Assembly (NCBI GenBank): GCA_965197585.1
Contig: OZ240215.1
Span: 1,760,001-1,824,000 of the forward strand
Source: Dehalococcoidia bacterium
GTDB taxonomy: Bacteria; Chloroflexota; Dehalococcoidia; Plut-88900
DNA: 64,000 nt
Direction of reading: 5' to 3'
Both the position numbers and the translations under genes were made by a program. The notes under the pieces were generated by a model that searched no databases, was not told the origin of the DNA, and was given only the letters and a program-made list of their open reading frames with translations. Positions 1-57,399 of the stretch are shown here, one piece after another. Numbering within the stretch: position 1 is the first letter of the stretch; each line of letters opens with the position of its first letter.

Positions 1-573
1 GCCCGAGATCGCTTTCAGGAATCCTTGCGGGATCCCGCCTCCCTCCGCGCCGACATCAGGGGCGTCGTCTACTCCCTAGTCGCCCTGGACGCCGACCGCG
101 ACCTCTACGACACTCTCTGGGACATGGAAAAGAAGGCCACCCTCCAGGAAGAGAAGCGTCGCCTTCTCGGTGCCGTCTCCCGCCCCAGGGACCCGATTCT
201 CCTGCAGGATACCCTTAAACGTTCCCTCTCCGACGATGTCCGTTCCCAGGACACCCCCCTCGTAATCATCAGCGTCGCCGCTAACCGATTCGGCCGGGAC
301 CTGACCTGGGACTTCGTCAAGGAGAACTGGTCCGAATTCGACCACCGCTATGGCAAAGGCGGCTTCATGATAATGCGCCTCGTCTCCATCACTGAAGACT
401 TCACCACACTAGAGAGAGCTGACGAAGTAGAGGCCTTCTTCGAGGCCAACCCGGTTGCCGGCGCCCAGCGCACCGTACAACAGTCCCTGGAGAGCATCCG
501 CCTCAACGCCCGTTGGCTAGACCTAAACGCCGACCCAATCACCAACTGGCTAAACACCCACCCCTCCATGTAG
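1..573 (+). CDS. M1-family aminopeptidase, C-terminal (ERAP1-like) domain; 5' end lies outside the window
   Basis: Frame open from base 1 to TAG at 571-573; VRSQD, WDFVKENW, QQSLESIRLNARW resemble the C-terminus of puromycin-sensitive/PepN aminopeptidases. Confidence 0.8.
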   Translation, partial: ARDRFQESLRDPASLRADIRGVVYSLVALDADRDLYDTLWDMEKKATLQEEKRRLLGAVSRPRDPILLQDTLKRSLSDDVRSQDTPLVIISVAANRFGRDLTWDFVKENWSEFDHRYGKGGFMIMRLVSITEDFTTLERADEVEAFFEANPVAGAQRTVQQSLESIRLNARWLDLNADPITNWLNTHPSM

Positions 574-24543: not shown

Positions 24544-24958
24544 CACCCCACCCTCCCCCGTCATTCCCGACCCCGAAGGAATCCATCCCCGGGGCGGGGC
24601 CGCTCACCCTGAGGCACTCGAAGGGTCGAGCGGGATGCGGCCCCCCATCAATCCGTCGCACCCTCCTCCACCCCAACCCCCTTCGCCCCTGTCATTCCGA
24701 TGCCCCGCGAGGAATCTGGGGAGGAGTCCTATCCCCTCTCCCTACGACGGGAGAGGGCTAGAGTGAGGCTGATCCCCTCCTTGGGGCGGAGCCGCTCACC
24801 CCTTCCTAGCCTTTCTGCCCCTCCCCCTTGATAACGATATATGAGCCATGTTGCAGAGCAACATGGCTCATATATCAATAAAACAGGGCGGGTGGGCGGG
24901 ACTCAATATATCCCTGAGGATGGTGAGGGTACCCCCTCCCATATGTGACACGAACCCC

Positions 24959-24988
24959 TTGACCCAAGGTGTACACATGTACTATATT
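24959..24988 (+). promoter_or_regulatory. Sigma70-type promoter with LexA-like box (element A)
   Basis: TTGACC (24959)-18 nt-TATATT (24983); GTAC-ACAT-GTAC at 24971-24982. Confidence 0.55.
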
Positions 24989-24994
24989 CACCCT

Positions 24995-25630
24995 CGACTA
25001 GCTCGTCACTCACCCCAAACCCAAGGAGGAACCAAAACACAGGGGGAACACCATCCCCGGCCCCCGAGGACTCAACATCTAAGCCCATCCCAAAGGGCGG
25101 CATTAGCCGCTCCTAGGCTCAAGCGAAAGCCGCCATCTCCTCATACCAAAGGCCCCGGCTCACCCTTCCCCCACCAACCATCAGGCGATGGAGGGTCCGT
25201 AGACTATAAGCGGCATGCCCTGTCCAAGGGCCCCTGCCGATACAACGCTCCCCTCATCAGGAGCGTATACCTCGCCCTCACAGGCGAATACCCTGACCCC
25301 GCCATTGGCCGGACTCAGATACAGGGCCTTTGAGCCCATAACCGACTCCCCCGCCGACGCCTTCGGAGAGGCAAGCGCACCCCTCGGCGGCTCCGAGTCA
25401 CGCTCCCATCCCTCCGCATGGTCGAGCACTTCTGGTGGTCGGGACGCCCCACGCCGAGAATCCCTCGGGTCCCCTCCCCATCCTCTCAGAAGCTAGGGGC
25501 TGCCCTGTGCAGACAGTAGATGTCCACAGGCACCGGCACAGGCCTAACCGCCTCCCTGCCCAACACTCTCGGACCTTCCGTCGCCACCCTCCCACTCAAC
25601 AAACAAACCCAGACCCCCAACCCCAACTGA
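24995..25630 (+). ncRNA. Candidate large structured non-coding RNA, copy A
   Basis: Shares ordered sequence blocks and covarying stems with 55144-55835; 16-bp helix 25184-25199/25570-25585; no ORF conserved between copies; ends approximate. Confidence 0.6.
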
Positions 25631-25844
25631 ATATCCCTCCCCCGTAGAGGCGACCGGCCAGTCGCCCTGGAGTAGGGCATTTCGCTCGCATCCTCCTGGG
25701 AAACGCACAATAATTCCCCCCAAACAATCATACAGGTGTGAACTTTTGATTGGATCAATTAAAAGTCTCACCTCTCACAGTGTATAGGCGCCACTCAACG
25801 GGCCGTCCCCCGACACCCTGCCATCCCTGCCTCCATCACTCCCC

Positions 25845-53755: not shown

Positions 53756-54571
53756 TCACGGGACCCGAGTCACGCGGACTGCGAAATTGCGGACATCCGG
53801 GGCACCGACGCGCGCTGCGTCAATCACGGTAGCTAGCGCCCACCCCACAGCGCTCGCCGTCCACTCAGGCAACATGACCGACACCCCGAGACCCGAGCGG
53901 GCAGGGGAGATGGGGCGCTCGGGCCAGTCGAACGACGCCTTGATCGAGTGCTGCTCAGGCACCGCTGCAACCGGTCCGAACTTGAATAGTCCAGTGTTCC
54001 TCCACTGGAGACCGGCGACCAACTCTTCCTCGGTTTGACCTCCGAGCAGCTCCTGGTTGAAGGCGATGAGCGCATCTGCTTTTCCCTTCAGGGTGGTGTT
54101 AAACCAATTGAGCGCAGAGACCAAGTCCCCTGCCGGGGATCGTATGCCGGGATCTAGGTCATATGCCGTCACCTGTATCCCAGACAACTCTACGTCTCCA
54201 AAGCGGCGGAGCGCATCATCGAAGCACTGTACCAACGCCGGCAACACCATTGCCGGCTCGGCAGGGCGTCGGCGAACCCCGAGCGCTGCATACCCCCAAC
54301 CTGTAACCGGTGCCGGAGGCGCCCTGGTTGGCTTGAGGTCACCAACGTTCAGTCCGACCTGCACCCACCCAATCCGGGATGCCTCAACGCCGACGGTTAG
54401 TTCCGCCTCGTTCATATCCCAGAGCATCGGGCGGCGACGATTCGACGTGGTTGACCAACCCATCAGTTCAGCACGCGCTCTAAAGACGCTATAGAGGTCC
54501 TCCTCCTCGGCATCAATCAGGTTCGTGCCCGGAGAAAGCTGTCCGAAAGCCTCAAGGAAAAGGGTCGACAT
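53756..54571 (-). CDS. Hypothetical protein
   Basis: 271-aa ORF with AGGAG before the ATG; no family recognised. Confidence 0.6.
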   Translation of the reverse strand: MSTLFLEAFGQLSPGTNLIDAEEEDLYSVFRARAELMGWSTTSNRRRPMLWDMNEAELTVGVEASRIGWVQVGLNVGDLKPTRAPPAPVTGWGYAALGVRRRPAEPAMVLPALVQCFDDALRRFGDVELSGIQVTAYDLDPGIRSPAGDLVSALNWFNTTLKGKADALIAFNQELLGGQTEEELVAGLQWRNTGLFKFGPVAAVPEQHSIKASFDWPERPISPARSGLGVSVMLPEWTASAVGWALATVIDAARVGAPDVRNFAVRVTRVP

Positions 54572-54580
54572 GGCAACTCC

Positions 54581-54930
54581 TCACCACCAACAAGTCCATA
54601 GACTGTCGCGGTGTACGTATCTGGACAATAGGCGGAACAATCTTCGAGACGTGACTTGGTAGACTGTTAACATCAGCAACCTCACGATGCGGTATGTACT
54701 ACGCCACCCATCAGGCTTTTTGGTCAAGTCGTTATACAGCCACTGGAACGGCCGGCCAACGTGCACGACAGGCACAATCGCGATCCCAAGCGCAACGGTC
54801 CACGCCATTTAGTCATCCAGGATGCCGAGCACTGCGGGAGGGATGGAAACGGTGGGTATGACAACGACCAAACCAGATATACACTTTCCTCTGCGCTTCA
54901 CGGTAAAGTAGCTCCCGGCAAGATTTTAAC
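54581..54930 (-). pseudogene. Possible degraded membrane-protein gene
   Basis: The 54581-54808 frame continues upstream past an in-frame TAA into more hydrophobic sequence (GLVVVIPTVSIPPAVLGILDD*MAWTVALGIAIV). Confidence 0.3.
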
Positions 54931-55108
54931 AGCCGAAACGGGAGACTCGAGGTACGAGCGCTGCGTGGCACGAATGCAGGACCTGTAGAGCCAACTGCGT
55001 AGACCCGACACCTATGAGTCTAATTGGCTGACACGGCAAAGGAGGCACCCCGATCAAATCAGAGAGCCTCCCATGATCTCGTTCAGATAGAGGAGTGACA
55101 CCAACCCC

Positions 55109-55137
55109 TTGACCCGTATGAACATTAGTGCTATTAT
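55109..55137 (+). promoter_or_regulatory. Sigma70-type promoter with LexA-like box (element B)
   Basis: TTGACC (55109)-17 nt-TATTAT (55132) with extended -10 TG; GAAC-ATTA-GTGC at 55120-55131. Confidence 0.65.
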
Positions 55138-55143
55138 CCCCAC

Positions 55144-55835
55144 CGTTCGAACACCAACCTAACTATTTCAAGGAGGAACCAAAAACTAGGGAAGCCCACT
55201 AGACCCACCCGAGGACTCAACGTCCAAGCCCATCCCAACGGCCCGCGCGCAGGCCCGCGGCTCAAGCAAACGCCGCCATCTCCTCATCCCACCGGGTCCC
55301 GTGACCCCTTCCCTGACCCCCAGGCGATGGAAAGACGCCCTGGTTCGCTATCGTTCCATGTGTGCCCCCTCTAAGACGCCCTCAGCCTCTTACAGGGATT
55401 CCCTCCCCCGGGAGGGTTCCCGCTCTTTCGAGCGGGGCGGTTGGGTAAGCCCGGCGCCGAGGTCCTCTCGGCTCCTCGACCGCTTAACAAGTCGGGCGCC
55501 GGTGAACCGTGCGCTCCGGGTCACACCGGCAAACTCAAACATACTACGCCTGCATGAGCCCCGACGACCCACGCCGGACGCCGGGTCTCCTCCCCGCCCC
55601 TGCGGGGTGCAGCCGACCCTCGGGAGCAGGGCTCGGACTGTCGGCTCTGACGGTCCCTGCCTTGTCCGGCGTGTCAGGGCCTTAGGCCGCAGCAGCGGCA
55701 GGCGGGCCGGATGCCCTTGCCCCAGGGCCTCGTCGGAATACCCGCAACACAGGAACGGGGGCAGCGTCCAGCCAGCGTCTTCCATCGCCAATCCCCTCCC
55801 AACAGACAGAACCGAAACCCACAAACCCCACAATC
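55144..55835 (+). ncRNA. Candidate large structured non-coding RNA, copy B
   Basis: Homologous to copy A; helix 55323-55338/55775-55789 extended by further paired segments; many internal hairpins; ends approximate. Confidence 0.6.
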
Positions 55836-56232
55836 GAAGATGGAACACCCGCCGTGCTGAAAGTCCGCCTTTGGCGGAGAGGATCCGCCTCAGGAGGACT
55901 GAATAAAACCCCGGCGTGTCACGAATCTACCAAACGAGTACATCCCTTAGCATTCATCATCCAAAACTCTGTATTATTAGTCCCGAACCATGAATTCGAA
56001 GGGAATTTCCTTCTAGCAGCGTCATCTACAATGGTAGTCCGGCTCCGGGGTGACACTTAAGACCGCATCGTGTAAAGCTAGACAACTAAGACAAGAGTAC
56101 GGCGTATCAGCCAAATGGCTCCAACAACGAGTTATCACGCCGCCTATAATTAGGAACTCTATCAATGGAGACAGGCAGTTTTCCATTGTTGATATGATGC
56201 ACCCTATAGAGGGCAGACAGAGGGAGGAACGA

Positions 56233-57399
56233 ATGGATTACAAAGTGATATCGGCAGACACCCATCTGGACGTTGCATGGCTTCCGGGTGACCTCTTCAC
56301 GAACAACGCCCCGGCACATCTCAAGGACAAAATGCCATATGTGGCCGACCAGAAAAACGGCGGCAAGGCATGGGAAATCGAGGGAGAATATATGTGCGGC
56401 GCCGGTGTAGGAGGAAATCTGACGAAGGATTTCGCAGCCTACGTACCTGGTCAGTCTCACCATCTTGACCGTATGGCTGAAGTGGGTTTCTTTGACGGCA
56501 TAGCGAACGGCATCTACCACCCCTCGGATGCACAGCTGCGCATCAAAGACCAGGACATCGACGGTGTAGACGCCGAGGTGATGTACGGCATCCTGGGCAT
56601 AGGTGGAGGCGGATTTTCGGGGCCCGGATTCAAGGATGTTGAGGTTACAACCGCCATCTATAATGCCTACAACGAATGGGTGTCCGGCTTTGTTCGACCC
56701 CACTCCGATCGCATCGCCGCCCTCGGTTGCCTCAGCAGCCACGATCCCGAAGTAGCAGCCCGACAGGTGAGACGCTGCGCCGAATTGGGATTACGAGGCG
56801 CGGAAATCAATGCTGGCAAAATGCCTAACCCCGCATATCACAAAAACTGGGAGCCGTTGTGGGAAGCCGCATCGGAGACCCGTATGCCAGTATCTTTCCA
56901 TACGTTGGGCTATCCCCATAGAACTCCTTCACCTGCCGACCAGGACGATTACGGATGGCTGAGCATGGGCCTTGGATTCATCATGTTCCAGCTATCGGGC
57001 ATCGAGTTCCTTGTAAGCATGGTTCTCTCCGGGGCCTGCGAGCGAAATCCAGACTTCCAATTCGTCCTCGGCGAGTGTGGAATCGGATGGATCCCCTACG
57101 TAATCGAAAGGACCGATTCAAAATACGATGACCGTCTGTTCCACCTAGGGTTCAACATGAAGCCTAGCGAGTACTGGCAGAGACAGGGCTACTCAACCTT
57201 CCAGCAGGAATACGTCTCAACCGATGAGATTGAGCGGATCGGCATCAACAACATAATGTGGGGCTCGGACTATCCCCACCCCGACGGCGTGTTCCCCGAT
57301 TCTGCCAAGGCCATCGCAGAAGGCATGGGACACCTGGACGACGCGGTTCGGCAGAAGTTGATATGTGACAATGCTGCGAGAGTGTACCGATTCAACTAG
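56233..57399 (+). CDS. Amidohydrolase family 2 protein
   Basis: ISADTH, SFHT, GECGIGW, MWGSDYPHPDGVFP; GGAGG before ATG 56233. Confidence 0.92.
   Translation: MDYKVISADTHLDVAWLPGDLFTNNAPAHLKDKMPYVADQKNGGKAWEIEGEYMCGAGVGGNLTKDFAAYVPGQSHHLDRMAEVGFFDGIANGIYHPSDAQLRIKDQDIDGVDAEVMYGILGIGGGGFSGPGFKDVEVTTAIYNAYNEWVSGFVRPHSDRIAALGCLSSHDPEVAARQVRRCAELGLRGAEINAGKMPNPAYHKNWEPLWEAASETRMPVSFHTLGYPHRTPSPADQDDYGWLSMGLGFIMFQLSGIEFLVSMVLSGACERNPDFQFVLGECGIGWIPYVIERTDSKYDDRLFHLGFNMKPSEYWQRQGYSTFQQEYVSTDEIERIGINNIMWGSDYPHPDGVFPDSAKAIAEGMGHLDDAVRQKLICDNAARVYRFN

Follow-up and report, generated by a model that had tools for sequence, protein, structure and literature searches.

The locus and its repeat family

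We analysed a window of 64,000 nucleotides (nt) of contig OZ240215.1 (positions 1,760,001 to 1,824,000, forward strand) from the genome of a Dehalococcoidia bacterium (assembly GCA_965197585.1, referred to as G000); positions below are those of the window. A 1.5-kb gap between a 271-aa open reading frame (ORF; 53756-54571, - strand) and an amidohydrolase gene (56050-57399) holds a long repeat unit, copy B, and a related unit, copy A, lies elsewhere in the window (Table 1). An earlier note on this DNA had treated them as two copies only; they are in fact members of a family of hundreds of copies. Each unit combines its own promoter, a conserved 5′ domain closed by a helix (P0) and a long-range + strand helix (P1) around one of at least 16 interiors. 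Units lie scattered over the genome, and parts of them have been reshuffled between loci. We regard copy B as one member of a genus-restricted, high-copy, dispersed family of independently transcribed genes for non-coding structured RNAs of ~0.65-0.85 kb, and put the probability of this reading at about 0.6. We class the element as being of a new, previously undescribed kind; a literature search yielded no account of a comparable family, with subscription journals and supplementary files outside the scope of the search.

Copies A and B resemble each other over their 5′ 250 nt and not in their interiors. With this 5′ segment as query, BLAST matched ~58 places in the 3.43-Mb genome, some in full and some in part. 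From 51 diverse copies we built a covariance model of the conserved 5′ module, and it identified 58 copies in G000 and 37, 42, 67, 41, 42, 52, 23 and 54 matches in the 8 other genomes of the genus. The family is thus kept across nine species-level genomes. The same model gave no matches in 3 sister genera, and none in 116 genomes from 93 other genera of the class, which were searched with stricter filters and with at most 23 candidates scored per genome. In the class sample of 121 genomes, every one of the 5 genomes with matches belongs to this genus, and an earlier BLAST search of other genomes of the class had found 0/32 positive. The conserved block at 55211-55238 served as the pattern for scans of genome, viral and metagenome collections. 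Among the matches listed from the exact-pattern scan of 185,579 species genomes, all 80 loci were titled 'MAG: Dehalococcoidia bacterium' (MAG, metagenome-assembled genome). The viral contigs contained no match to this pattern, and in the metagenome collection it was matched by 5 short contigs with a single accession prefix, which were put to no further use.

Motif anchoring in G000 gave 59 units with both P1 arms 200-750 nt apart. Three of these (c02, c23 and c56) are without the 5′ module and were left out, giving 56 full units; 9 more anchor matches without a 3′ arm were excluded from the count. The 58 covariance-model matches and the 56 anchored units are separate counts, with no one-by-one cross-match. 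Wider comparisons used 147 distinct units from the nine genomes of the genus and further MAG loci, selected by the two P1 arms (at most one mismatch each), CGCCATCTCCTC and GAGGACTCAAC. Conservation of these elements is partly by construction, because they served as selection anchors; the counts for the promoter, AAGGAGG, P0 and the tail are independent of them.

The closing helix P1

The earlier note had proposed that a long-range helix closes the interior of copy B, and had placed both of its arms exactly (Table 1). An inverted-repeat search recovered a perfect 10-nt pair (55323-55332 / 55780-55789) 447 nt apart, and the helix is present in the minimum free energy (MFE) fold of 55323-55789 as 10 pairs, a bulged A and 5 pairs. 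It is not lost in further copies: the same two arms flank all 56 full units of G000, which excludes a chance origin of P1. In 33 B-type homologues, 98.2% of the P1 cells are paired, as are 92.8% of those of the next helix.

P1 acts as an RNA helix on the + strand and is selected as RNA. Over its outer 9 pairs in the 147 units, read on the + strand, the 1323 cells comprise 1273 Watson-Crick, 30 G-U, 5 A-C and 15 other combinations; an A-C on the + strand would be a G-U on the - strand. This asymmetry is no selection artefact, because any single mismatch was allowed when units were selected. The inner arms (the next 24 nt on each side) pair more stably with their own partner (-18.2 kcal/mol, n=147) than with arms from other clusters (-13.9, n=1470). 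In a 16 x 16 matrix of cluster representatives, which separates into two blocks, the corresponding values are -19.9 on the diagonal and -13.6 off it. The pattern first seen between copies A and B, an outer part that is conserved and an inner part that is changed on both strands, is therefore real and general. For P1, the value of the evidence is limited to the G-U/A-C asymmetry and the inner arms.

Beyond P1 the stalk continues, as the note had suggested, although in the register CUGG/CCAG (28-33 of 33 sequences paired per position) and not through TGGTT/AGCCA. P1 and the stalk together form ~35-40 nearly continuous pairs (10 + 5 + 4 + 4 + 7 + 7, with small interruptions). Of the claim that structure and not sequence is under selection, one part is supported: the closing helix is selected as RNA, given its 30 G-U against 5 A-C cells and its more stable cognate inner arms. 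As worded the claim is not supported: the outer 9 pairs, the 5′ module and the interiors within each type are conserved in sequence.

The interiors and their folds

The interiors are 225-553 nt long and fall into two classes and at least 16 BLAST clusters. Those of copies A and B are indeed unlike, with no BLAST similarity past the arms. The stems listed earlier for the interior of copy B (CCCUCCC/GGGAGGG, CCCGCUC/GAGCGGG and the CCGGCGCC stem) all occur in the MFE fold of 55323-55789, and the inverted-repeat search also gives CACGCCGGAC/GTCCGGCGTG at 55570-55579 / 55664-55673. This segment folds better than shuffled controls, with a z-score of -4.80 and 0/100 dinucleotide shuffles as good. 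The copy A interior reaches z -6.26, and the whole unit (55145-55935) has z -4.31 on the + strand versus -2.73 on the - strand (20 shuffles each).

Among 33 B-type copies, mean column identity is 76%. The fold of copy B, a structure derived from one member, is paired in 81.9% of the cells of the 33-sequence alignment versus 36-45% when partners are slid by 1-3 columns, and it contains 47 double-change cells versus 14-24 in the slid controls. Conservation of the B-type fold is clear and covariation within the type is modest. The members differ mostly by whole hairpins gained or lost, with indels of hairpin size.

Three other possibilities were considered and rejected. In the search for an antisense or guide function, interiors gave 133 exact or near-exact matches outside units, 67 of them antisense and 66 sense; these belong to small dispersed repeats or to incomplete units, and no antisense target was found. 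If the 5′ leader paired with the 3′ tail, or other segments with each other, cognate energies should stand out, and they equal the non-cognate ones (e.g., -13.0 vs -13.2). An invertible DNA segment does not agree with the 43 B-type interior matches, all of which share one orientation relative to the 5′ module.

Anatomy of the unit

The features of copy B are collected in Table 1. Across the family, a promoter of the form TTGACn-16..18-TAnnnT is found in 135 of the 147 units, over spacer sequences that have diverged. Judging from the promoter, transcription of copy B probably starts near 55145. The AAGGAGG that follows is complementary to the 16S 3′ end GGATCACCTCCTTT (CACCTCCTTT), and no ATG, GTG or TTG lies 5-10 nt downstream of it, either in copy B or in the alignment of diverse copies. 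The P0 helix, across units NAGGGAAG with CUUCCCUN, is seen in MFE folds, and its second pair covaries (A-U 78, G-C 29, G-U 10, A-C 8 and other 7, in 132 units). It encloses nearly invariant C-rich single-stranded blocks and the hairpins H2 and H3. H2 is kept by differing sequences (GGUCGC..GCGACC, GGGCGG..CCGCCC, GGCC..GGCC), and H3 covaries at alignment columns 147/157 (C-G 28, A-U 16) and 150/154 (G-C 32, C-G 14). A pairing of CCATCTCCT with GAGGA or GGAGG is predicted and is beyond the reach of covariation because these sequences are invariant. P0 and P1 are separated by a linker of ~8 nt.

Table 1. Positions of the features of copy B, and of copy A as a whole, in the 64,000-nt window.
Feature	Positions	Strand	Remarks
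GTGACAC motif, 7 nt 5′ of the -35 box	55095-55101	+	in 107/147 units; highly conserved in the 56-copy alignment
Sigma-70-type promoter TTGACC-17-TATTAT, TG before the -10 box	55109-55137	+	10/12 consensus positions matched
AAGGAGG, Shine-Dalgarno-like	55170-55176	+	exact in 145/147 units; ~26 nt from the probable start
P0 helix, 5′ strand UAGGGAAG	55187-55194	+	pairs with 55308-55315
Conserved block GAGGACUCAACGYCYAAGCCCAUCCCAA	55211-55238	+	nearly invariant in 51 diverse copies
Hairpin H2	55240-55263	+	read from the alignment
CGCCAUCUCCUC block, resembles the 16S anti-Shine-Dalgarno	55274-55285	+	CCATCTCCT exact in 143/147 units, but a selection anchor
Small hairpin H3	55293-55303	+	covarying columns in the 51-sequence alignment
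P0 helix, 3′ strand CUUCCCUG	55308-55315	+	pairs with 55187-55194
P1, 5′ arm GGCGATGGAAAGACGC	55323-55338	+	
B-type interior, stalk and multi-hairpin head	55339-55774	+	homologues in 7/9 genomes of the genus
P1, 3′ arm GCGTCTTCCATCGCC	55775-55789	+	
C/A-rich, G-poor tail	55790-55828	+	composition over 147 units
CACAAUCGAAGA (family motif CACAAYYGAAKA)	55829-55840	+	in 132/147 tails, median 37 nt after P1
Optional small hairpin modules CCGCC..GG(A/C)GG, then CUGAAUAAAA	55841-55908	+	0-3 per copy
Optional 3′ module (..GUGUCACGAAUCUACCAAACGAGUACA..) and unit end	55909-55948	+	in 60/147 units
Copy A, second unit of the window, class II interior	24945-25650	+	P1 arms 25184-25199 and 25570-25585

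The first 55 nt of the 147 tails consist of 41% A, 39% C, 12% G and 8% T, and no intrinsic terminator was found in the tail of copy B. Presence of the 3′ module is not linked to the type of 5′ start. The small hairpin module GGAACAUCCGCCUnnGGAGGA (55841-55898), of which tails carry 0-3, also occurs in the 5′ modules of some other copies. It is bordered by YYGAAGA direct repeats, as if it inserted independently.

Transcription and genomic context

A single study has four RNA-library runs, under the label sponge metagenome, that contain parts of the stretch. Contigs of these runs cover the interior and the 5′ module, the latter many times and also from other copies. A 475-nt contig at 55317-55791 shows 9 differences and a depth of 13.7; a contig of the neighbouring gene has a depth of 3.8. 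The contigs start at 55315/55317 and stop at 55788-55791, and positions 55808-56055 are left uncovered, a gap that we do not count as evidence. Their boundaries are explained by assembly breaks, as they coincide with the points where the copies begin or cease to share sequence. The contigs weakly support transcription of the units.

These contigs also bear on the function of P1, which could be a processing stem that is cleaved at its base to free the inner domain or to permit its circularisation. The length of the nearly continuous P1 and stalk suits this role, the genome encodes RNase III, and rRNA genes have the same layout of leader, long-range stem, structured RNA and trailer. However, contigs bridge the 5′ module and the 5′ arm (e.g., 55238-55340 and 55256-55346), so any processing at P1 would be incomplete, and a 553-nt contig joins a 5′ module to another interior. 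Release at P1 is a plausible step; as the explanation of the helix, we find the processing stem doubtful. Circularisation has no support: the RNA-library contigs include no reported back-splice joint, and we know of no route to circles in bacteria that corresponds to the archaeal splicing endonuclease.

Among the 56 units of G000, those on the + strand outnumber those on the - strand by 42 to 14, with a switch near 2.6 Mb. The orientation of the units relative to replication depends on the indicator, as GC skew and gene-strand bias point to different origins. The + strand of this genome is C-rich almost throughout (cumulative GC skew down to -15, with extremes at 1.06 and 2.65 Mb), and its gene-strand bias is weak. 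With neighbours defined crudely as ORFs of at least 150 aa, the ORF downstream runs in the same direction in 41/56 units and the upstream neighbour in the opposite direction in 37/56. This pattern fits units that prefer promoter regions as well as an active promoter whose antisense read-through is selected against; a co-directional downstream ORF in most units is as expected if read-through matters.

The same pattern raises the question of whether the unit is a cis-acting module of promoter regions, altering downstream genes by read-through or by using its 3′ module as an upstream promoter element. Besides the 41 co-directional cases, 27/56 units lie between divergent genes, and both neighbours end towards the unit in only 5/56. 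In a copy inserted in genome G005 (see below), the 3′ module stops 2-5 nt short of the -35 box TTGACG of the next gene, and the 16S promoter has a similar GTACA-N6-TTGAC arrangement. However, units precede genes of unrelated kinds (a ZnuA-type binding protein, an amidohydrolase, tRNAs), and the promoter of the gene next to the insertion is present at the empty site too, without the unit. Moreover, 15/56 units point at no co-directional gene, just 60/147 carry the 3′ module, and the neighbour calls themselves depend on the crude ORF rule. The conserved 400-nt folded interior is left unexplained, and we consider a cis-acting module quite improbable.

Gain, loss and exchange of units

At the orthologue of the copy B locus in G005, both flanks are syntenic (94% over 3.5 kb) and the interior is 97% identical, and the 5′ module is of a different subtype. 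G003 is without window positions 53808-56041 (the 271-aa ORF and the unit), and G001 also has no unit there. In G007 and G008, a unit lies upstream of the orthologous gene, with interiors of different lengths. At another locus, a B-type copy in G005 makes up the difference between 976 nt of sequence in this genome and 160-314 nt between the same flanks in G000, G001, G003, G004, G006, G007 and G008. This inserted copy aligns with copy B over 55094-55948, and we therefore define the extent of the unit by that span. The insert also carries ~130 nt of other short repeats. In this single occupied/empty pair, no target duplication was found and ~140 nt were replaced. Two more G005 copies reveal an interior swap or a rearrangement between units. 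The insertion, the empty loci and the swaps together indicate that units are gained, lost and recombined.

A selfish, non-autonomous DNA repeat would behave in much this way. It would spread or recombine as DNA, the P1 arms would be DNA-level inverted repeats, and the RNA fold would be a by-product. The lone G005 insertion, the empty B locus in two genomes, and the interiors and 5′ modules exchanged at orthologous loci all agree with this, as do the intergenic position of units alongside other short repeats and the copy number of 23 to 67 per genome. Other properties argue against it. The inverted repeats are internal, with ~230 nt of conserved sequence 5′ and 60-160 nt 3′ of them, the one insertion replaced ~140 nt and has no target duplication, and there are 0 inverted interiors among the 43 B-type matches. 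The arm mismatches are G-U on one strand (30 vs 5), and the promoter hexamers are kept over diverged spacers. Searches of the whole G000 genome gave 0 matches to reverse transcriptase (PF00078, RVT_1), 0 to the TnpB zinc ribbon (PF07282) and 0 to Y1 transposase; DDE transposases and serine/tyrosine recombinases were not searched for. A purely selfish repeat is in our view unlikely, and less so than a cis-acting module.

Coding potential and known families

Long frames overlap the unit on both strands (55301-55906, + strand, 201 aa; 55390-55848, - strand, 152 aa), as they would if a protein-coding gene on either strand had been overlooked because of its odd composition. These ORFs have no Pfam match. 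Among the 33 B-type homologues the longest frame shifts strand and phase, and of 399 indel runs 303 have a length that is not divisible by 3; stop codons are scarce in a strand with 35-42% C. A protein-coding gene is thus extremely improbable.

A cmscan search of the 64-kb window against Rfam 15 gave 0 matches at the gathering threshold. Copies A and B had only chance-level matches far below threshold at E up to 10, and 20 further copies yielded only neighbouring tRNAs and two sub-threshold matches. The known RNA families OLE, GOLLD, ROOL, raiA, HEARO, group II intron, RNase P, 6S and tmRNA were rejected for having no Rfam match here. A retron (msr-msd) was rejected as there is no adjacent reverse transcriptase and no PF00078 match genome-wide. 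The omega RNA of IscB/TnpB was set aside on the PF07282 result, the neighbouring ORFs being a peptidase, an amidohydrolase, a phosphotriesterase and a ZnuA-type protein. A miniature inverted-repeat (MITE) or Correia-like transposon is contradicted by the internal position of P1, described above, and by the missing target duplication at the single insertion. An origin from an rRNA leader was likewise rejected: the unit is unlike the 16S promoter and leader, except for the GTACA-N6-TTGAC arrangement. The unit shares single features with each of the nearest known kinds, and it lacks what defines every family open to testing.

G000 has one 16S gene (G000:C1:680161-681758, - strand), and the 500 nt downstream of it contain no 23S gene. 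In front of the 16S promoter, TTGACT-17-TAGATT, stands GTACATTAGC, similar to the GAGTACA-N5-TTGAC junction at the 3′ modules.

Neighbouring genes and other repeats

In G003, where the 2.2-kb block 53808-56041 with the 271-aa ORF and copy B is absent, the M24 peptidase and amidohydrolase genes adjoin. A tie between the 271-aa ORF and the units was rejected, as the ORF is single-copy in G000, belongs to no Pfam family and has no link to other units. The amidohydrolase gene downstream of copy B belongs to a large family of paralogues: each of five genomes of the genus has 8-12 matches to it at the DNA level. Upstream of copy A (24600-24900) lies a mosaic of short dispersed repeats, e.g., GTCATTCCGA..CGCGAGGAATCTGGGG and the hairpin CCCCTCTCCC..GGGAGAGGG. 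A perfect 41-nt palindrome at 24836-24876 is the source of the only weak (miRNA-like) Rfam matches.

A second family, with ~14 loci in G000, has the same promoter (GTGACACGAACCCCTTGAC..TACTATATT) and a different 5′ module. Its loci, outside the window, include G000:C1 62860(+), 1590859(+), 2280200(+), 3022084(+), 3386770(-) and ~9 more. This 5′ module contains AAGGAG-N4-ATG together with a conserved 'MSRTSL.RPRR.RAVW' start, and an A-type closing helix and an A-like interior come after it. That these loci are coding is doubtful, because the strand is C-rich and its frame runs on without a stop for >200 codons.

Proposed working of the RNA

Several observations weigh against reading the family as genes for independently transcribed structured RNAs. 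The outer 9 pairs of P1 never covary, and their high Watson-Crick share is partly circular because units were picked by arm motifs with at most one mismatch. In the B-type fold, 17 pairs have double changes versus a shuffled mean of 16.7, a value that 263 of 500 shuffles reach. On its own, the 5′ module shows no folding beyond chance expectation (z -1.5), and small dispersed repeats insert into interiors and are tolerated there. Single copies are dispensable, since neither G003 nor G001 has a unit at the B locus. Support from RNA comes from the assembled contigs of one study, which carry no information on strand, ends or level and may include DNA carry-over. The steps of stabilisation, Rho action and RNase cleavage proposed below are drawn from sequence features and the presence of genes.

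Given a structured-RNA gene, its working could be as follows. The exposed AAGGAGG near the 5′ end, just upstream of P0, would bind the 16S 3′ end and dock a 30S subunit without initiating translation. Docking would shield the RNA from 5′-end-dependent decay in the manner of a Shine-Dalgarno 5′ stabiliser. PMC3997798 describes such Shine-Dalgarno sequences without a start codon as 5′ stabilisers in organisms reliant on RNase J. P1 and the stalk would fasten the variable domain to a scaffold shared by all units; a double-strand-specific RNase is likely to recognise them, and RNase III could be the one that cuts. Rho would be loaded on the C/A-rich, G-poor tail and would end transcription ahead of the following gene. 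The genome has genes for all three proteins of this scheme, RNase J, RNase III and Rho.

More tentatively, the family could be a protein-free 'RNA gene cassette' that multiplies in bacterial genomes, in which a constant expression-and-scaffold module displays at least 16 heads exchanged by recombination. We hold this to be possible, with somewhat more in its favour than the processing stem. To judge from sequence, the constant module would comprise the promoter, the ribosome-docking 5′ domain, the P1 clamp and the Rho tail, and the RNA may work on the ribosome via its exposed Shine-Dalgarno. If true, the cassette would be a bacterial counterpart of an RNA gene family like the short interspersed elements (SINEs), or a modular RNA display system.

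By our estimate (56-58 units of ~0.8 kb), ~1.3% of the 3.4-Mb genome is devoted to the family, and its gene count is on par with that of tRNAs. If the RNAs are functional, they add a new level to the RNA biology of a lineage that has not been cultured. If they are selfish, an RNA gene is able to spread in a bacterium without a reverse transcriptase or a recognisable transposase. Either way, the family offers hundreds of natural variants for structure probing, and, as a source of recombination, it also contributes to rearranging these genomes.

Comparison with known systems

The AAGGAGG at the head of the unit resembles STAB-SD elements of the cryIIIA, ermC and aprE leaders (PMC3997798): both are strong 5′ Shine-Dalgarno sequences without a start codon, and RNase J is encoded here. 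STAB-SD stabilises Bacillus mRNAs, whereas the present sequence heads a non-coding RNA in a Dehalococcoidia lineage.

In its layout, the unit recalls an rRNA operon, with a promoter, a leader, a long-range helix around a structured RNA, a trailer and an encoded RNase III. As with an RNase III processing stem, the long-range helix has ~20+ pairs and flanks a structured RNA. The enclosed RNA is not rRNA, however, and the resemblance is one of layout only.

OLE, GOLLD, ROOL and raiA are large structured bacterial non-coding RNAs with one or a few copies per genome. Like them, the RNA described here is non-coding, 0.5-0.8 kb long, rich in conserved helices and narrow in taxonomic range, and comparative sequence analysis preceded any knowledge of function. 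Unlike them, it occurs in 23-67 copies, has no Rfam match and combines a constant scaffold with alternative interiors. HEARO and omega RNAs are structured RNAs of a few hundred nt, multicopy and tied to mobile DNA, and are located beside or within the end of an IscB/TnpB gene. The present family shares with them a structured RNA, many copies and moving DNA, but PF07282 has no match genome-wide and the units match no Rfam family.

SINEs (Alu and tRNA-derived elements) are copied through the reverse transcriptase of long interspersed elements (LINEs). Like SINEs, the present family is a protein-free RNA gene with its own promoter and a high copy number. It differs in that G000 has no PF00078 match and the lone G005 insertion has neither a target duplication nor an A-tail.

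Correia/NEMIS, ERIC, BOX and REP/BIME elements are 30-300 bp long with repeats at their ends, and Correia hairpins are cut by RNase III. The intergenic dispersal, the frequent position beside promoters and the ability to fold are common to these elements and the present units. The conserved promoter, 5′ domain and large folded interior are not found in them, and there is no RAYT or Y1 gene in G000. To our knowledge, the dispersed repeats of bacteria are all short and their large structured RNAs are present in one or few copies per genome. A promoter-bearing, modular, high-copy RNA gene of 0.8 kb matches neither of these groups.

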